A stretch of 35,471 nt of DNA, from positions 1 through 35,471 of IMG/VR virus record IMGVR_UViG_3300037631_002085. One strand, 5' to 3'. A model generated the notes under the pieces. That model saw only the letters and a program-made list of their open reading frames with translations. It had not been told where the DNA came from and searched no databases. The translations under genes and the position numbers were made by a program. Shown in pieces: positions 387 through 17,597 of the stretch; within the stretch, counting starts at the first letter, position 1, and each line of letters begins with the position of its first letter. Source of the stretch: a virus. Its lineage: Duplodnaviria; Caudoviricetes.

Positions 387-1291
387 GCAGATGCCTTAAA
401 TCCCTCCGGCGCACTTGCTACACCATGCACAGGCAGGCGTTTAGACACTGCGCAGAATGGATAATCGCACCGACCGACCAAATCACCGTCGAGCGGTTCT
501 TCGGCTGGCGCAGGGGCGCAAAGCGCCGAATGTTTCAGCCGTGCGCAGTCCTCAAGGCAGGCGAGCATCAAATCCTCGTTGATGGGCTGTCCGAAGTGCT
601 TGCGCTGATTGACGCGATTCAACCGGGCCTCCCCCGCAGTGCGCTCAAGGAGGGGATGAAGGGCGGCTTCATGCTCGAAGGCGAACCGCCGTTTGCGCAC
701 GACCTCCAAGCCTTCTTTCGCGAAAGCGCGTTTGACTTCCTCATTTTCTCTTGCGATTCCGTGCGCATGAGGGAACCCAATTCGGACGCTATGTTCGCCG
801 GTTTGAAAATGCGCAGTGTAGTCGCTCACACGGCCATGAAATCCCCTCCCGCTACACCCGCCCACCTTGGCGCAACATGGGCCATTAGAGCGCCTTACAG
901 GGGCAAAAACGGGCAGGTTCTCGCGCCTGCGCTGGTGTTCGGGGATTATCCGCACATCGTCGTCGCCATGAATCTCACCGATACGCCGTCCTTCTCGTTC
1001 AAAGAGCCGACGCTGATTTCAAGTGTTGTCTGCGCAGTGGGTGGTGGTCTTGACCTGCGCCCACACGCTACGGTTAAGCGCGATGAACCTCGCAGAATTA
1101 TTGTTGAAATTGACCGGCGCATCGCGGATATGCACGAAAGCGGATTTTCGCCCGAACCGTTTCTTGGCGACGACCGCACGCACGGGGGCATGACCTTCAA
1201 GGAACGGGACATGATAGAGCGGCAACGGGCGATTCAGGCGTTTCACGACCTCGACAACCCTATTCTTTCAACTGGTCTGAAAGAATTGTGA
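383..1291 (+). CDS. hypothetical protein (~290-302 aa)
   Basis: Long ORF co-directional with neighbours; no motif recognised; start could be the GTG at 383 or a downstream ATG. Confidence 0.7.
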   Translation: MSRCLKSLRRTCYTMHRQAFRHCAEWIIAPTDQITVERFFGWRRGAKRRMFQPCAVLKAGEHQILVDGLSEVLALIDAIQPGLPRSALKEGMKGGFMLEGEPPFAHDLQAFFRESAFDFLIFSCDSVRMREPNSDAMFAGLKMRSVVAHTAMKSPPATPAHLGATWAIRAPYRGKNGQVLAPALVFGDYPHIVVAMNLTDTPSFSFKEPTLISSVVCAVGGGLDLRPHATVKRDEPRRIIVEIDRRIADMHESGFSPEPFLGDDRTHGGMTFKERDMIERQRAIQAFHDLDNPILSTGLKEL

Positions 1292-1467
1292 AAGAAAAAA
1301 AGGACGCACTGCTCACTATTTCCGTTTATTGTTTATTGTGTTAAAGGGATTTTGAAATTAAAGCCTCTTTCTTTTCAGCCATCCTATGAAAGAAAAAACA
1401 ATTCCCGTTAATGCGCCGCAGTGCTTCGGTTTATTTTTTCTTAATTCTTTCAACGGCACGGAAAGAA
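1262..1467. repeat. AT-rich region with imperfect inverted repeat and GAAAGAA iterons; candidate replication origin
   Basis: TGAAAGAATT 1278-1287/AATTCTTTCA 1443-1452, GCACTGC 1306-1312/GCAGTGC 1418-1424 and ATTGTTT 1328-1334/AAACAAT 1396-1402 all share one axis at 1365; ATTCTTTCAAC is directly repeated at 1262 and 1444. Confidence 0.55.
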
Positions 1468-1482
1468 AGGGTTGATATGGAC
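1468..1482 (+). promoter_or_regulatory. archaeal TATA-like promoter (AGGGTTGATATGGAC)
   Basis: Variant of the recurring GGTTTATATGAAC motif; TTGATA starts 30 nt upstream of ATG 1502. Confidence 0.55.
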
Positions 1483-1501: not shown

Positions 1502-2299
1502 ATGGCGTGGGGCTTAACGACTCTCAATGAAACGGATTTCTATGTTGATGAGAGCATTCTCTCCGAGATAACCCATGTGCTTCTCGTCAATACGGAGGGC
1601 GCATCATCACTTCCTCAATTGCTCGTCGCAAGCGCAGTCATGGGCGAAGAACCCGTGGGCTTCATCACCTCAAAACACGCTCTCGTCGAACCACACCGAA
1701 CCCTCAATGAAACAACGACGATGTGGCCTATCTTCCGAAAGGGCTTGACTTTGTTCGTGTGCGTGAACGCACTGCCCGTCATATCTCATACGCACAGTGC
1801 GCAACGCAACGAATGGTTGTTCAATTATCCACCGGCACGGGACATAGTGGCGTATTTCAAATGGGCGGCACACTTCGGCATCCTCACGACCTTTGCGCTC
1901 AACCGCCTGTTTAACGAAGCCCCACCGACCTTCCCCGCTATGCGTGTGGATGCTCGCCTGATGGGAACGGACGAAGCGCCTCAATCGTTGCAGTCTATTT
2001 GGGGCTGGTTGCCTGCGCACTTATTCACGCTCATGTCCGATGAGCCTTCAAGCATTTTCGTCATGCCGAGCGAAACGGCCACGGCAACTTCACGCGAGAA
2101 CATCACGATTGACCCCGCCGACTTTAAAACGATGTGCGACCTGCTACGGGAGAGCGGCTTCTCAATCCCCGAAGAAACGGCTGAACAGGCGGAGGCTTCT
2201 TATAATGGCGCTACATCGGAAGCCATAGAGCGAGTCAAGGAATTGATGGGCGCACATGAAAAGACGATTGACCGAGGAAGCGGAGGGATGTATCAATGA
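1502..2299 (+). CDS. PAC2/PbaA-PbaB-like (proteasome assembly chaperone family) protein with C-terminal HbYX motif
   Basis: 265 aa from ATG 1502; segment order resembles PAC2 (HVLLVN..., PVGFITS, NYPPARDIVAYF..FGILTT, SIWGWLPAHL, IDPADFKTMCDLL..GFSI, EQAE..IERVKELM); ends GGMYQ. Confidence 0.55.
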   Translation: MAWGLTTLNETDFYVDESILSEITHVLLVNTEGASSLPQLLVASAVMGEEPVGFITSKHALVEPHRTLNETTTMWPIFRKGLTLFVCVNALPVISHTHSAQRNEWLFNYPPARDIVAYFKWAAHFGILTTFALNRLFNEAPPTFPAMRVDARLMGTDEAPQSLQSIWGWLPAHLFTLMSDEPSSIFVMPSETATATSRENITIDPADFKTMCDLLRESGFSIPEETAEQAEASYNGATSEAIERVKELMGAHEKTIDRGSGGMYQ

Positions 2300-3579
2300 C
2301 GGACATATTCACACGACTACAAACCTTCTGCGACAAAAATCACTTGGTTGATGTGGAGGACAAAGTGCCGGTGTTCATCTGTTCGATTGGCGCACACCTG
2401 TTCAACGCCGTGAACAAATGCTCAATGTGCGACTTTGACCCAATGACTGCGCCCGAAGGCTCGTTTGTGATTGAGGAATGCCCACTGCGCCACGACTCAA
2501 CCCCAATTTACACACCCGCTTCCCGCCTCGCAGACACACGCATTAACATTCTCATGCGTGGTGCGAAGGGTTCGGGAAAGAATGTTCTCATTGATTTGTT
2601 CTGCGCAGAAAATACGGGTCTGCTATGGAACAAAGAAGCGTTTGAAGGCGTTGGCTTTCGCACTATGATTGGCGCAAACAGCATCACCGAGGCCGGTATG
2701 TTCGGCTCGGTGAACGAAGAAGGTCAAGTCATGGGACGGCCCCTCGCTCGCGATTTGTGCGGCGGCTTCCTGTGTTTTGAAGAATTTAGCGCCATGTCCG
2801 ACGCAGGGAAGAAAGACCATAGCATTGACATGAAGAATCAAATGCTCACCTCGCTTGACAGTGGCCGTGTGAACAAAGCCATGCGCAGTGGATGGGTGCG
2901 CTACAACACACGCTTGACGATGTGGGCAGGCACACAACCAGCACGCTTTGAATTGGAGTCCGGTCTTGACCGACGCTTCTTCATCATTGACATTGAGATG
3001 AGTCCTGAAAAGGAATTGCTTTACAAAAAGGCGCAGAATGCGCAGGCCAGTCTATCCCCCGAAGAACGGGTTGAATTAGCCGAGGAAGCAATCGCACTGC
3101 GCCATTGGTTCATTGACCGGCAGAAGAAGGTCATGGGCAATCGGCCAAAGGGCGTTGTCTTTGGCGAGGACTTTGAAGAATGGACGCTTCAAGAGTCAGT
3201 GCGCTCTTTTGAGAGCGACCTGTTCCGGCGGCTCGCTATCGGTTATGCTGTGATGAACGGGGAATGGATGGGCGAATTGCTCATGGTTAATTTGGACGAC
3301 CGACTGCGCTCAATCCTTGAATCCTCGCTCAAAATGCGCAGAAATGTTATGGACGAGGACATACGCTTGATTCGCACGACCTTTTGGGAGAAAGATGTGC
3401 CGCGCTCATCGTTGCTCAAAGACATAGCCCGTTTGGTGACCAACAACGACTATCAATCAGCGAAGCGATGGATGGAGGACTACTTGCTCAATCAGCCGTG
3501 GTTCAAAGAATACATTCCGAAGAAGGACGGTCGAGGACGCAAGGGCGTTATGTGCAGGTTCGGATTTGATGAGGTGTGA
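2296..3579 (+). CDS. mcm: MCM-like AAA+ ATPase/helicase lacking the N-terminal domain
   Basis: Walker A ILMRGAKGSGKN; ANSITEAGMFGSV (cf. MCM SSAAGLTAAV); GGFLCFEEF (cf. GGVCCIDEF); YNTRLTMWAGTQP (cf. LNARTSILAAANP); Arg finger LDRRFFII. Confidence 0.75.
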   Translation: MTDIFTRLQTFCDKNHLVDVEDKVPVFICSIGAHLFNAVNKCSMCDFDPMTAPEGSFVIEECPLRHDSTPIYTPASRLADTRINILMRGAKGSGKNVLIDLFCAENTGLLWNKEAFEGVGFRTMIGANSITEAGMFGSVNEEGQVMGRPLARDLCGGFLCFEEFSAMSDAGKKDHSIDMKNQMLTSLDSGRVNKAMRSGWVRYNTRLTMWAGTQPARFELESGLDRRFFIIDIEMSPEKELLYKKAQNAQASLSPEERVELAEEAIALRHWFIDRQKKVMGNRPKGVVFGEDFEEWTLQESVRSFESDLFRRLAIGYAVMNGEWMGELLMVNLDDRLRSILESSLKMRRNVMDEDIRLIRTTFWEKDVPRSSLLKDIARLVTNNDYQSAKRWMEDYLLNQPWFKEYIPKKDGRGRKGVMCRFGFDEV

Positions 3580-3821
3580 ACATGGTGAAGCATGACCGTT
3601 TTTTGAACGCGTGTGTTCGCTATCTCGAAAAGAAAGGCGAAGCCGAAATTAGCGATATTCTTAACGGCTTGACGACGGTGAAAGGGACACGCATGAACAG
3701 TCGCCAACTCCCTGAGCGCAAAGGCGCAAAGTGCCGACTGACGAGAGATAAACGCTTTGAGCGAATTGACTATGATGGGCGCACAACCTGCTTCCGTCTG
3801 CGCAAGCGAGGTGATGAATAA
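3576..3821 (+). CDS. small basic protein, possible winged-HTH
   Basis: 81 aa; GAGGTG SD; helix-helix-helix-beta hairpin pattern (LEKKGEAEISDIL...LTRDKRFERI). Confidence 0.6.
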   Translation: MNMVKHDRFLNACVRYLEKKGEAEISDILNGLTTVKGTRMNSRQLPERKGAKCRLTRDKRFERIDYDGRTTCFRLRKRGDE

Positions 3822-4102
3822 TGCCCAACCCAAAAAGACGATACCGATACAAACGCTGGCTTGACAAATGCTACCAATACCTCCGAGATACAGGCGATGT
3901 GCAGACTGCGCAGTGGTTGCTTGAGAACATCGGGTATAAAGTCAATGGCGAGCGCATGAAACGAACCATTCCTCCGAATGTGAACAGTGCGGCGCAAAAA
4001 TTGTCCCGTGATGGCCGCTTTCACTGCTTTGATATGGAAGGCATCTCTTATGGTCGGAACGGACAGGCATACAAAGCGCACGCTTGGGGGGTGATGTATT
4101 GA
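3821..4102 (+). CDS. small basic protein, possible winged-HTH
   Basis: 93 aa; GAGGTGA SD; resembles the preceding ORF (YLRDTG..., KLSRDGRF). Confidence 0.6.
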   Translation: MPNPKRRYRYKRWLDKCYQYLRDTGDVQTAQWLLENIGYKVNGERMKRTIPPNVNSAAQKLSRDGRFHCFDMEGISYGRNGQAYKAHAWGVMY

Positions 4103-14203: not shown

Positions 14204-16422
14204 TTGTCGAGCGAGGACGGGGGAACGAAGTCGTTGTTCGGTTTCGTGAAAACGGTGTGCGCAAAGAGCAGAAGTTGAGCGCCGAACCGTTTTGCTTTGT
14301 CGAAAGGGATGACCTGTTCAAAATCAACCGAGCGTTCATCAAACAGGCAGGTGAATATCGTGGTCTTTACGGCGAGGATTTGGTGAAGGTTCAATTCTCA
14401 AGCACCGAGGATATGCGAGAGGGCGTGAGGGGTCTGCGCACATGGGAAGCAAACATTACCCATGAGAACCGAGTCCTCGTTGAGAACGATTTCACCCTAC
14501 CGATGTATGAGCATCGGGTTTGCTATTTTGACATGGAATGGATGATGGAGTCGGGTCAAATCACCATCATTGTCGTTCACGACTCGGAGGAAGGCGAATA
14601 TGTGTTCTTCAACCATCCCGACTATGCGCAGGGCTATTATGACACCATTCAGTGCGCAAATCACCCCGATGGATTGACGGAGGTTCACGCTGGCGAGCGC
14701 AAAATGAAGTGCTTCGCAGATGAACGCTCTATGCTTCTCGACTTTGCTCGACTTTTGCGCAAACGAGACTATGACATCATCACCGGCTGGAATGTAGTCA
14801 ATGCCGACATTCAGCAATTGTTCAAGCGATTCAAGGCCAACGACATTCAACCAAACCTCCTTTCGCCCATGAAGCGCATACGGTATGACTTCAAGGATTG
14901 GGGGCAACCCATCGTGGGAACGAATGTCATTGACTTGATGGTTGCCTTCAAGAAGTTATGGACGCTCAAGAACGGACAATTGCCTTCTATGGGTCTTGGT
15001 GCGGTTTCTGCGCACTGCCTCGGAGAAACGAAGGTCGAATTGGCTGACGGACACAACACCTATTTCAGCGACTTCGGGACATACCTTGACTACGCACGGC
15101 AAGATGTGCGCCTGTTGCCTCGCCTTGATGAAATGGTGGGTGCGCTCAATTATTTCACTGCCGTTCAGCACATCACGGGATGCGACATACGCACAACCCC
15201 GTGGGTTTCACGGTTGTTCCCAATCCTCGCCCTGCGCGACCCGGACTTCAAATGGCGCATACCCTCAAAACCCCAATTTGAGAAGGTGGACTATCCCGGC
15301 GCAGACATTCAAACGGCTGATGCTGGCGTTTATGAGAATGTAGCCATCATGGATATTAAGGCGATGTATCATTCAAATATCAACCTGCACAACATTTGCT
15401 GGACGAACCTTGACGAACAGGGCAAGGACTGCGGCAACGGTGTTCGCTTTGCGCAGAAGAAGGGTTTGCTCGGTCGGCAGATGGATAAAATGACTACGCT
15501 ACGCAACGAATACAAAGCGCAGATGAAGAATGCGTCAAGCGAGGGAGAGCGCAGAATGTTTGATGGTCTGCAATACGCCACGAAGTCCCTTGTCGCTTCC
15601 ATGTATGGCGTTGCTGGCGATAGCAAGTGTGGTTTCTATCACCCCGATATTGCCGCCTCAATCACTTATACCTCCCGTCAAACACTTTACCGTCTGCGTG
15701 ATGAATGCGAGTCGTTGGGTATGCCTGCTATTTACGGACACACCGATTCGGTTTTCGTGCAGTGCGAAACACCCGAAAGAGCCGTTGAATCACTGCGCAT
15801 AATCAATGAGCGCATGGCCCCAATTGAAACCGAGTTTGAGAAGTGGTGCAAGACCTTCCTCTTGATGGCGAAGAATCGCTATGCGGGGGAAGTGCGCTGG
15901 ACTGATGGAGAACATCACGATGCGCAAATGTATGTGAAAGGCGTTGAGATGAAGCAGTCCCGACTTCCGAATGCTATGAAGAATGCCATGCAGACCGTGA
16001 TAGGCGGGATTCTTTCTGCGCAAAGCGAAGAAAACATAGTTGCGCCGTTGGAGGACTTGGTGCGCAGAATAGTCGCCAAAGAGATTCCAGTTGCCGACCT
16101 GTGCATCAAGGCCAAGTTAAGCAAAGACCTAAGCGAATATACGACGCTCGGAGAAGTGCGTGCTGGTGCGTATTGGGCGAATGCGCATTTAGGTAAAGGC
16201 TATCGCAAAGACGATTATTTCCTCTCGACGCTTAACGATAACGGCGACTACATCGCCTTTGACGACCCATCAGAAATTGAGGGTATTGCGCAGGTCGGTT
16301 ATCGCCACCTCGCAGAACGGTTCATCGTTGAAAAGGTGCGTCCGTATTTTGAAGTCATGCAGTGGGATATTGTGCGCATAGAGAATGCGCTCAACGGTCT
16401 TTCGGGCATGGGGTGGTTATGA
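14200..16422 (+). CDS. polB: family B DNA polymerase with 3'-5' exonuclease
   Basis: ExoI YFDMEW, ExoII GWNVVNAD, ExoIII YARQDV; motif A DIKAMYHS, B KSLVASMYG, C YGHTDS; KNRYAG, KGVE; likely TTG start at 14200. Confidence 0.95.
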   Translation: MIVERGRGNEVVVRFRENGVRKEQKLSAEPFCFVERDDLFKINRAFIKQAGEYRGLYGEDLVKVQFSSTEDMREGVRGLRTWEANITHENRVLVENDFTLPMYEHRVCYFDMEWMMESGQITIIVVHDSEEGEYVFFNHPDYAQGYYDTIQCANHPDGLTEVHAGERKMKCFADERSMLLDFARLLRKRDYDIITGWNVVNADIQQLFKRFKANDIQPNLLSPMKRIRYDFKDWGQPIVGTNVIDLMVAFKKLWTLKNGQLPSMGLGAVSAHCLGETKVELADGHNTYFSDFGTYLDYARQDVRLLPRLDEMVGALNYFTAVQHITGCDIRTTPWVSRLFPILALRDPDFKWRIPSKPQFEKVDYPGADIQTADAGVYENVAIMDIKAMYHSNINLHNICWTNLDEQGKDCGNGVRFAQKKGLLGRQMDKMTTLRNEYKAQMKNASSEGERRMFDGLQYATKSLVASMYGVAGDSKCGFYHPDIAASITYTSRQTLYRLRDECESLGMPAIYGHTDSVFVQCETPERAVESLRIINERMAPIETEFEKWCKTFLLMAKNRYAGEVRWTDGEHHDAQMYVKGVEMKQSRLPNAMKNAMQTVIGGILSAQSEENIVAPLEDLVRRIVAKEIPVADLCIKAKLSKDLSEYTTLGEVRAGAYWANAHLGKGYRKDDYFLSTLNDNGDYIAFDDPSEIEGIAQVGYRHLAERFIVEKVRPYFEVMQWDIVRIENALNGLSGMGWL

Positions 16423-17597
16423 TGGCTGAATTGTTTCACGGAGATTGCTTGAAAGTGCTGAAAGGTATGCCCGATAACTCGGTTGATTCAATCGTCACCG
16501 ACCCTCCGTATGGGCTTTCATTTATGTCAAAAAAATGGGACTATGATGTTCCCTCCGTTGAAGTTTGGCATGAATGCCTTCGTGTGTTGAAGCCCGGTGG
16601 ACACCTGCTGGCCTTCGCTGGCTCACGCACCTATCACCGGCTCGTCGTCAATGTTGAGGACGCTGGTTTCGAGATTCGTGACCAAATCATGTGGGTCTAT
16701 GGTTCGGGTTTCCCGAAGTCTCACAACATAGGCCACAAGGCCGAGGAATGGCAAGGGTGGGGAACGGCTCTCAAACCCGCCCACGAGCCTATCGTGGTCG
16801 CCCGTAAGCCTCTCGCCGGGACGGTCGCCGCAAATGTTCTTGAGCATGGCACAGGTGGCTTGAACATTGACGCTTGTAGGGTGCAAATGGAGGGAAAGGA
16901 TGGTGGAACATGGGGGGCAAGCAACGCTACGATTGACCACGAGGGAAGAATGTTCAACCGCTCCAACAATCCCGAATATCGTTCACAAAGGCACGATGCA
17001 GGACGCTTCCCCGCTAATTTCATTCACGATGGGTCGGAAGAAGTCGTGAGCCTATTCCCCGATTCATCAACAACAGGCAAAAGGACTCAAAGAAGTCATT
17101 CAAAAGAGAAGAAAATTAACGACCATGTTCACGCATTTCAACGCCAAAGAAGCGACCAAGAATACACCGACAGTGGTTCAGCCGCCCGATTCTTTTACTG
17201 CGCAAAAGCCTCCCGTTCCGAGCGCAACGCTGGACTTGAAGCGTTTGATGACGGCGAGCGCACTGATTACGGCGGCTTTCACAGTGAAAAGGGACTTGTC
17301 GCCAACGGACGAAACCCTGAGAATCGACTCCCCGTGAAAAACATTCACCCAACGGTGAAGCCGATTGACCTTATGCGCTATTTGTGCAGACTCGTCACGC
17401 CACCGGAAGGCGTTGTGCTTGACCCGTTCATGGGTTCGGGAACAACGGGAATCGGCGCAAAGGCAGAAGGCTTTGACTTCATCGGCATTGAGCGAGAAGA
17501 GGAATACCTGCGCATAGCAGAAGCGAGAATTGCGCAGGGGGTTGTTGTCGAAGTCGTTCAACAGGCGATTTACAAAACGCTGGACGAATGGTTATAA
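16419..17597 (+). CDS. N4-cytosine/N6-adenine DNA methyltransferase (beta class)
   Basis: GDCLKVLK; IVTDPPYG (motif IV); HPTVKP; VLDPFMGSGTTG (motif I); FIGIE. Confidence 0.93.
   Translation: MMAELFHGDCLKVLKGMPDNSVDSIVTDPPYGLSFMSKKWDYDVPSVEVWHECLRVLKPGGHLLAFAGSRTYHRLVVNVEDAGFEIRDQIMWVYGSGFPKSHNIGHKAEEWQGWGTALKPAHEPIVVARKPLAGTVAANVLEHGTGGLNIDACRVQMEGKDGGTWGASNATIDHEGRMFNRSNNPEYRSQRHDAGRFPANFIHDGSEEVVSLFPDSSTTGKRTQRSHSKEKKINDHVHAFQRQRSDQEYTDSGSAARFFYCAKASRSERNAGLEAFDDGERTDYGGFHSEKGLVANGRNPENRLPVKNIHPTVKPIDLMRYLCRLVTPPEGVVLDPFMGSGTTGIGAKAEGFDFIGIEREEEYLRIAEARIAQGVVVEVVQQAIYKTLDEWL

Follow-up and report, generated by a model that had tools for sequence, protein, structure and literature searches.

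A diverged PAC2/Pba-like fold with an HbYX-type C-terminal tail predicted for a protein family of marine archaeal viruses

Background

PbaB of Pyrococcus furiosus (PDB 3VR0, PF09754) binds and activates the 20S proteasome through its C-terminal HbYX (hydrophobic-Tyr-X) motif and also acts as a holdase (PMC3605417). PbaA of the same organism (PDB 3WZ2) possesses the fold and an HbYX end, yet does not bind the mature 20S (PMC3605417, PMC6992696), and the role of archaeal Pba proteins apart from the proteasome is regarded as an open question (PMC6992696). The eukaryotic Pba1-Pba2 and PAC1-PAC2 proteins are heterodimers acting in proteasome assembly, whereas the archaeal 20S self-assembles (PMC3605417). 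The described pocket residues of the 20S are P17, G19, K66 and L81 of the alpha subunit (PMC10349882, PMC10349142, PMC3493965), and in the archaeal 20S the Tyr hydroxyl of HbYX bonds to G19 (PMC10349882). Phenylalanine at the penultimate place is accepted both in the archaeal HbYX definition of Forouzan et al. (PMC3493965) and by the human 20S (bioRxiv 10.1101/2021.04.28.441858); the natural Phe of M. mazei PAN-A activates the 20S less strongly than does its Tyr mutant (PMC3493965).

The window analyzed in this work is a whole linear virus contig record of 35,471 nucleotides, estimated to be 58% complete. The original prediction, made from its letters alone, had assigned to one of its genes a PAC2/Pba-like product with a proteasome-docking HbYX tail, possibly acting together with a translationally coupled AAA+ ATPase. 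The proteasome is commonly subverted by eukaryotic viruses. In the full-text literature searched no report of a PAC2/Pba homolog in an archaeal virus was found. The available passages of PMC11706807, PMC10160649 and PMC5434244 name no proteasome gene in these viruses, and neither PAC2 nor proteasome appears in the supplementary files at hand of PMC11706807 (2 files), PMC5434244 (2 files) and PMC8651126 (12 of 23 files), an annotation being possible in the others. ProEnd counts HbYX endings in viral proteomes, without a family-level analysis in the passages available (PMC11475706).

Methods

The published HbYX pattern, [LVIMGAPFYW][FY]x, was scored at the C-termini of 369 ORFs of at least 80 amino acids, identified with a simple ORF caller in the window and five related viral records. 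The same set, 57 members of which end in an ATGA overlap, served as the overlap control. To obtain a sample unbiased by the tail, loci were fetched via the neighboring ATPase (best 80 of 200) and their ORFs were then searched. Trees were constructed for the protein minus its last 12 residues (quick IQ-TREE) and for the ATPase (FastTree), midpoint-rooted, and clades I and II were assigned by hand from both. The set of 49 tail-clade representatives includes P0040, P0041, P0042 and P0047 by choice, with two lying across the midpoint. The sigma-70 promoter scan is not applicable to an archaeal promoter.

Results and discussion

The virus, the gene and its upstream region

The window encodes PolB, a clamp loader (RFC), an ERCC4 nuclease, a dNMP kinase, a tail tube protein and a tape measure protein, and its five near-complete relatives span 61-65 kb. 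In the complete relative G005 a metallophosphoesterase is encoded between terminase and portal, and no DNA ligase was found among the 29 G005 proteins scanned. Magrovirus group C has been described as carrying PolB, a clamp loader and a tailed-virus module, without DNA ligase and with a PolD-exonuclease-like gene inserted in the structural module (Philosof et al. 2017, PMC5434244). By gene content the virus is a candidate member of magrovirus group C, and the group C traits of its relatives point to Poseidoniales as the probable host.

The ORF in question is a real gene; its product ends in ...IDRGSGGMYQ, and its TGA stop codon (2297-2299) overlaps the ATG (2296-2298) of the following P-loop ATPase gene in an ATGA arrangement (Table 1).

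Table 1 Features of the PAC2-like gene and its surroundings (window coordinates)
Feature	Position	Strand	Evidence
Viral protein with predicted PAC2/Pba fold, 265 aa	1502..2299	+	Translation, AF2 model, Foldseek and VIA matches
Long C-terminal helix predicted for residues 226-250, corresponding to the 'tentacle' helix of PbaB (PMC3605417)	2177..2251	+	AF2 model
Predicted flexible linker ending RGSGG	2252..2287	+	pLDDT <50 for residues 252-265
M-Y-Q, HbYX-type C-terminal motif	2288..2296	+	Translation, conservation, overlap control
Archaeal TATA-like box GGGTTGATAT; GGTTTATA in most relatives	1469..1478	+	Conserved in 18 aligned relatives
Coupled MCM-like AAA+ ATPase, 427 aa, ending RFGFDEV, no HbYX	2296..3579	+	hhalign, synteny
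AT-rich stretch, conserved in relatives, that holds ATTCTTTCA/TGAAAGAA repeats in direct and inverted orientation	1262..1467	.	5' of promoter

The TATA-like box is situated 23 nt 5' of the ATG, and the motif GGTT[TG]ATA, which also precedes several other genes of these viruses, shows comparable spacing in 18/18 aligned related loci. This position and conserved spacing are consistent with a leaderless archaeal promoter, and the transcript probably lacks a leader. The last linker codons of the PAC2-like gene contain GGAGGG (2282-2287), which also resembles a putative ribosome-binding site of the next gene. The AT-rich repeat element, a candidate replication origin or regulator-binding site of ~200 bp just 5' of the operon, is also present in three related loci (L006, L008 and L012), and three related records (G001, G002 and G004) have a second copy of it elsewhere. 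The gene directly 5' of the PAC2-like gene (383-1291, ~280-300 aa) has no match in Pfam or PHROG; a look-alike occupies the same place in G001 and G005.

Predicted fold and family assignment

Searches of Pfam, PHROGs, NCBIfam and PDB sequences with the viral protein gave no useful match, and a sequence search of GenBank phages likewise gave nothing useful. The cut-off of Pfam PAC2 (PF09754) was reached neither by the protein itself, nor by any member of two alignments (26 and 29 sequences), nor anywhere in the whole window. A broad viral profile compared with PDB ranked PbaB (3vr0) second, at a non-significant E of 0.7; the BFVD search returned only two viral relatives, and locus searches with three distant homologs in viral contigs and with A1 in genome contigs gave no confirmed locus.

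The AF2 model built from a 26-sequence alignment (mean pLDDT 79.7, pTM 0.80) consists of an alpha/beta core of good confidence, a helix at residues 226-250 and a low-confidence tail (252-265). Its best Foldseek match is P. furiosus PbaA (3wz2, E 1.7e-6, TM 0.45-0.5), which like Ta1441 (PDB 3GAA) is among the closest known systems, and all the matches listed at E<=1e-3 (at least 36, with further chains of the same entries left out) are PAC/Pba proteins. An independent VIA search of 48,161 chains gave the same Z, 14.6, for PbaA and PbaB, with 192 and 205 aligned residues and rmsd values of 3.8 and 3.9, respectively. The top nine VIA rows are PAC-family proteins with Z from 14.6 to 9.0, and the next fold is a nucleoside phosphorylase (PNP) at Z 8.6; Pba1-Pba2 and PAC1-PAC2 have the same fold as the viral model, with Z 9-11.7. 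Profile-profile comparison with the pooled Poseidoniales PAC2 paralogs, which are far apart from the viral family in sequence, nevertheless showed whole-length similarity over 200-210 columns (probability 60-66%, pairwise E ~6-9e-5; 0.1% probability for an unrelated control). The PAC2 alpha/beta/alpha fold with a C-terminal helix, proposed originally from the order of segments, is hence found in the predicted model and backed by both structure and profile-profile matches.

Two other assignments were considered and rejected. An M14/AstE peptidase, suggested by ESM Atlas features (score 0.90, 142/256 shared), reached Z<=7.4 as compared to 14.6 for PbaA/B and has only a general alpha/beta layout in common with the viral protein; the PNP-type phosphorylase is likewise far below PbaA/B.

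In the PAC2 family the first core strand is typically followed by a glycine-rich loop. This loop is absent from the viral proteins, which have NTEGASSLP and its variants there, as opposed to, for example, PGVGNVG in the host proteins. The viral family has invariants of its own (W105 and Y109, with S57, R113 and W169 nearly invariant), whose conservation points to a changed surface. The protein is predicted to be a very diverged representative of the archaeal PAC2/PbaA-PbaB fold. As the Pfam test failed and the glycine-rich loop is missing, we do not file it under PF09754; on the strength of the model it is a new viral family with a PAC2 fold, structurally like the PAC2 superfamily.

With PbaB the viral protein shares the predicted fold, the long C-terminal helix, the disordered tail and the HbYX-type end. 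It differs in being only ~8-9% identical and in giving no Pfam PAC2 match, in a tail that in most cases reads M-F-x and that a sister clade has largely lost, and in the coupling of its gene to an MCM-like ATPase. PbaB-type activators form a homo-oligomer (tetramer) with projecting tails, and the viral protein may do likewise. In PbaA, which does not bind the mature 20S, the tails are packed; the tail of the viral monomer model is free, but a monomer cannot show packing in a ring.

Conservation of the C-terminal tail

The viral protein ends in M-Y-Q, a hydrophobic-Tyr-X sequence at a free C-terminus predicted to be disordered. In the first alignment, composed of the 26 closest sequences (37-92% identity), 25 end in M-[YF]-[QA] (Tyr in 7, Phe in 18) and the remaining one has its C-terminal part missing. 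The published HbYX pattern was matched by 17 of the 369 ORFs, and six of these 17 belong to the PAC2-like family. In the loci fetched through the ATPase the starting profile alone recognized 69 of 75 upstream genes at E<1e-20; the other six were weak (two truncated, four diverged), two of them being recovered only after iteration, and the best non-member among 1468 ORFs had E 0.65. The 74 representatives of this family at 90% identity comprise 9 with HbYX, 38 with HbFX, 4 with M-[WH]-X and 23 without a motif. The statement that all distant homologs end in M-F-G was dropped, since this neighbor-based sample held many tail-less members; the set of distant homologs was probably biased, because the tail raises the HMM score.

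Both the protein tree and the ATPase tree split the viruses into two groups. The tail has been retained in 38/39 loci of clade I, to which the window virus belongs (one of those counted ends M-W-G), and in only 4/36 loci of the sister clade II. Among the 49 tail-clade representatives Met occupies position -3 in 47, Gly position -5 in 44 and F/Y/W position -2 in 46, whereas residues -6 to -12 are variable. Early-branching members of clade II retain the tail (GGMFG, GVMWQ) and others show relics of it (GGMFDEDI), which suggests that the tail is ancestral and was later lost in clade II, although the root is uncertain. The conserved penultimate Tyr expected by the original prediction was not found, as Tyr is in the minority with respect to Phe (9 and 38 of the 74 representatives, respectively); the conservation of the motif stands for clade I when it is read as Hb-[FY]-X, and fails for clade II.

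The sole clade-I member without the tail, L290, has a probable DNA methyltransferase gene, recognized by motifs (L290:3065-3994), between the PAC2-like gene and the ATPase. One PAC2-like subclade (clade-II tails L310, L317 and L337) ends in LDDWI or MDEWI, which could be a clamp-binding tail replacing HbYX, or chance. C-termini such as KTLDEWL and QKKIEDWL, which we take to resemble archaeal PIP boxes, also occur in products of other genes (window 16362-17597, G001:12210-12875 and G003:9890-10621).

The tail is not explained by the overlapping start codon

The ATGA overlap is present in all 16 and all 20 close loci of the two sets inspected, and for this reason we tested the idea that the tail is without function, a by-product of the start codon and ribosome-binding site that overlap it. 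The terminal Q/A and G-x codons fit such an overlap, the G-x-M codons could also accommodate a ribosome-binding site, and an unrelated gene, the second small ORF after the ATPase (3821-4102), ends in GVMY through its overlap with a ribosome-binding site. In the overlap control, however, an M-[YF]-x end was confined to the six family members and occurred in 0/51 other ATGA-coupled genes. The two traits also come apart within the family: ATGA survives without the motif in ten clade-II loci, and the motif without ATGA in 14 clade-I loci, some of which have GTGA or TTGA overlaps. The Phe codons of the tail vary synonymously (TTT/TTC). We consider the by-product explanation very doubtful; the tail appears to be kept for the sake of the protein, as originally proposed. 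From these comparisons the motif is under protein-level selection in clade I, as Hb-aromatic-X rather than strict HbYX, and dispensable elsewhere, given its loss in 32/36 clade-II loci and absence from 23/74 representatives.

The coupled ATPase and the gene order

In hhalign comparison with the host MCM, 116 columns of the viral ATPase aligned; they run from Walker A through the region of the helix-2 insert, Walker B and the pre-sensor-1 region as far as sensor 1 (pairwise E 1.2e-3; the probability, 19%, is low). With PAN and Cdc48 the alignment was confined to the surroundings of Walker A (17 and 26 columns, respectively). There was no Pfam MCM match for the ATPase and no HbYX among the 13 C-termini examined; its AlphaFold model had pLDDT 34. 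The ATPase is strongly conserved (at least 335 clusters, the best 120 at 59-95% identity), and MCM has been reported in all the magroviruses of Philosof et al. (PMC5434244). It is probably the MCM-like replicative helicase of the virus; its likeness to MCM and the lack of HbYX indicate, at the level of sequence, that it is not a proteasomal ATPase.

Among the best 80 of 200 loci the PAC2-like gene precedes the ATPase in 75, within 30 bp in 65 of them and with small genes or a methylase inserted in 10. One of the remaining five is cut by the contig end and the other four (L297, L298, L299 and L302) form a clade without the gene near the ATPase; it was also not found elsewhere in the records of these four, which are 39-81% complete, in a search run without a positive control. 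The coupling noted originally is thus conserved, but joint action on the proteasome is unlikely with an MCM-like partner devoid of HbYX. If the two proteins act together, DNA replication is the more likely setting.

This arrangement raises the alternative that the PAC2-fold core works chiefly with the ATPase, as its chaperone, loader or ring scaffold, the tail being secondary or a fading ancestral trait. The gene order cited above speaks for it, as does the persistence of both core and gene order where the tail has been lost, and the viral ATPase, at 427 aa versus ~700 for the host MCM, aligns only from Walker A onward. A precedent exists in PbaA, the core of which binds the co-transcribed PF0014 independently of the tail (PMC6992696); the viral gene is likewise in an operon with its ATPase. 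On the other hand, operon order alone does not show binding, the two genes are separated by insertions in 10/75 loci, one clade has the ATPase and apparently no PAC2-like gene, and the strong retention of M-aromatic-x in clade I is left unexplained. We regard this alternative as somewhat unlikely.

Two small basic ORFs follow the ATPase (window 3576-4102); by eye they resemble DNA-binding proteins of the winged-helix type, and they have no significant family match. Another ATPase module is found in G005 (49988-53291; L024:9988-13291), where a 762-aa AAA_5 (MoxR-like) ATPase gene is followed by a DUF7192 gene.

Possible docking on the host proteasome, the preferred reading

20S alpha and beta subunits and PAN are encoded in 5/5 Poseidoniales genomes inspected; PAN ends in L-Y-G/S, whereas Cdc48 has no HbYX. 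All five aligned Poseidoniales alpha subunits have the four described pocket residues unchanged. PAC2 was found in 101/101 Poseidoniales genomes, mostly in three copies. Among 45 host proteins inspected, the ends of paralog one are M/L-[YF]-G in 9/9 (SSGMYG, SSAMFG, NAMLYG), those of paralog two (31 inspected) are mostly degenerate (PSFG, PMIG, PSVG; once STMFG), and paralog three (5 inspected) ends in FYV, FYM or SYM. Host tails such as the first two listed and STMFG resemble the viral GGMYQ, GAMFQ and GGMFG. An intact 20S pocket and PAC2 paralogs with similar tails thus supply the host background for the docking foreseen by the original prediction, Poseidoniales being the likely host. Complex prediction for the viral protein with three host alpha subunits gave a score of 0.04, which counts neither for nor against docking.

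The Pba-like predicted fold, together with a tail like those of the host's own versions, makes it likely that the viral protein plugs into the protein-destroying machine of the host. The loss of the tail in most sister viruses makes it likely that the body of the protein has a second job. We tentatively favor a reading that joins the two, although as a whole it falls a little short of being probable: in clade I an ATP-independent Pba-like oligomer would dock on the host 20S, and its core would have a role independent of the tail. What the sequence itself provides for this is the gene, the tail and the position as first gene of an operon that also encodes an MCM-like ATPase; to these the model adds the predicted PAC2 fold, the long C-terminal helix and the disordered linker. 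By analogy with PbaA and PbaB the protein may form a homo-oligomer (a small ring) presenting 4-5 tails. The M-Y-Q tails would enter the host 20S pockets without ATP, the terminal carboxylate binding alpha K66 and the aromatic residue sitting by G19/L81, so that a PbaB-like cap would compete with PAN and the host PAC2 proteins. The gating or blocking of the proteasome and the removal of defense proteins, raised in the original prediction, are hypothetical effects of such docking. Pocket occupancy and the passing on of unfolded clients seem likelier than strong activation, since most relatives have Phe, in one published archaeal case a weaker gate opener than Tyr. The second, tail-independent role of the core, suggested by its persistence with the gene order in the sister clade that has mostly lost the tail, would probably be the binding of a viral client, e.g. 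the co-translated MCM-like ATPase.

Against docking stand the presence of Tyr in only 9/74 representatives and the absence of the tail from 32/36 clade-II loci; the precedent of PbaA, with fold and HbYX and no binding to the mature 20S; the missing glycine-rich loop and the family-specific invariants, with the changed surface to which they point; and the fact that the most constant trait of the PAC2-like gene is its link to a replication-type ATPase (75/80 loci). The protein could instead serve as a proteasome-independent holdase for viral proteins, its C-terminal helix and hydrophobic tail catching unfolded chains as PbaB does in vitro. PbaB suppresses aggregation, and the loss of its last 8 residues or of the helix impairs the suppression (PMC3605417); magroviruses, moreover, often carry chaperonins (PMC5434244). 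It is not obvious why a holdase should need M-aromatic-x in a fixed register at its extreme C-terminus, and we consider this role quite improbable.

A decoy, co-assembling with the host PAC2 paralogs and poisoning or re-targeting them, would find its targets in hosts that mostly have three paralogs, two of them clearly related and differing in their tails, intact in one and degenerate in the other. The viral family is ~10-13% identical to the host proteins, with no paralog closer by a clear margin, and at such a low identity preserved hetero-interfaces are unlikely. Such a decoy is therefore highly improbable.

A bolder version of the docking model is a two-faced ring, the core of which would grip clients (host defense or replication proteins, or the viral MCM-like ATPase) while the host-mimicking tails dock on the proteasome. 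We hold it to be unlikely; if true, it would be a case of a prokaryotic virus with its own 20S regulator, controlling targeted proteolysis in an archaeon, and the loss of the tail in the sister clade would be a natural experiment. Independently of this, a near-core gene of a widespread group of marine archaeal viruses, with a predicted host chaperone/activator fold and tail, would offer a directly testable archaeal case, and its tailed and tail-less natural variants give a handle on the proteasome-independent role of archaeal Pba proteins.

Searched with the viral profile, 201 Poseidoniales genomes yielded 3 short weak matches but no full-length cellular copy, and 301 genomes of the phylum likewise yielded none of full length. 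The two related host PAC2 paralogs, one with the tail intact and one with it degenerate, are often encoded 6-14 kb apart (loci L205-L252), like a Pba1-Pba2 pair.
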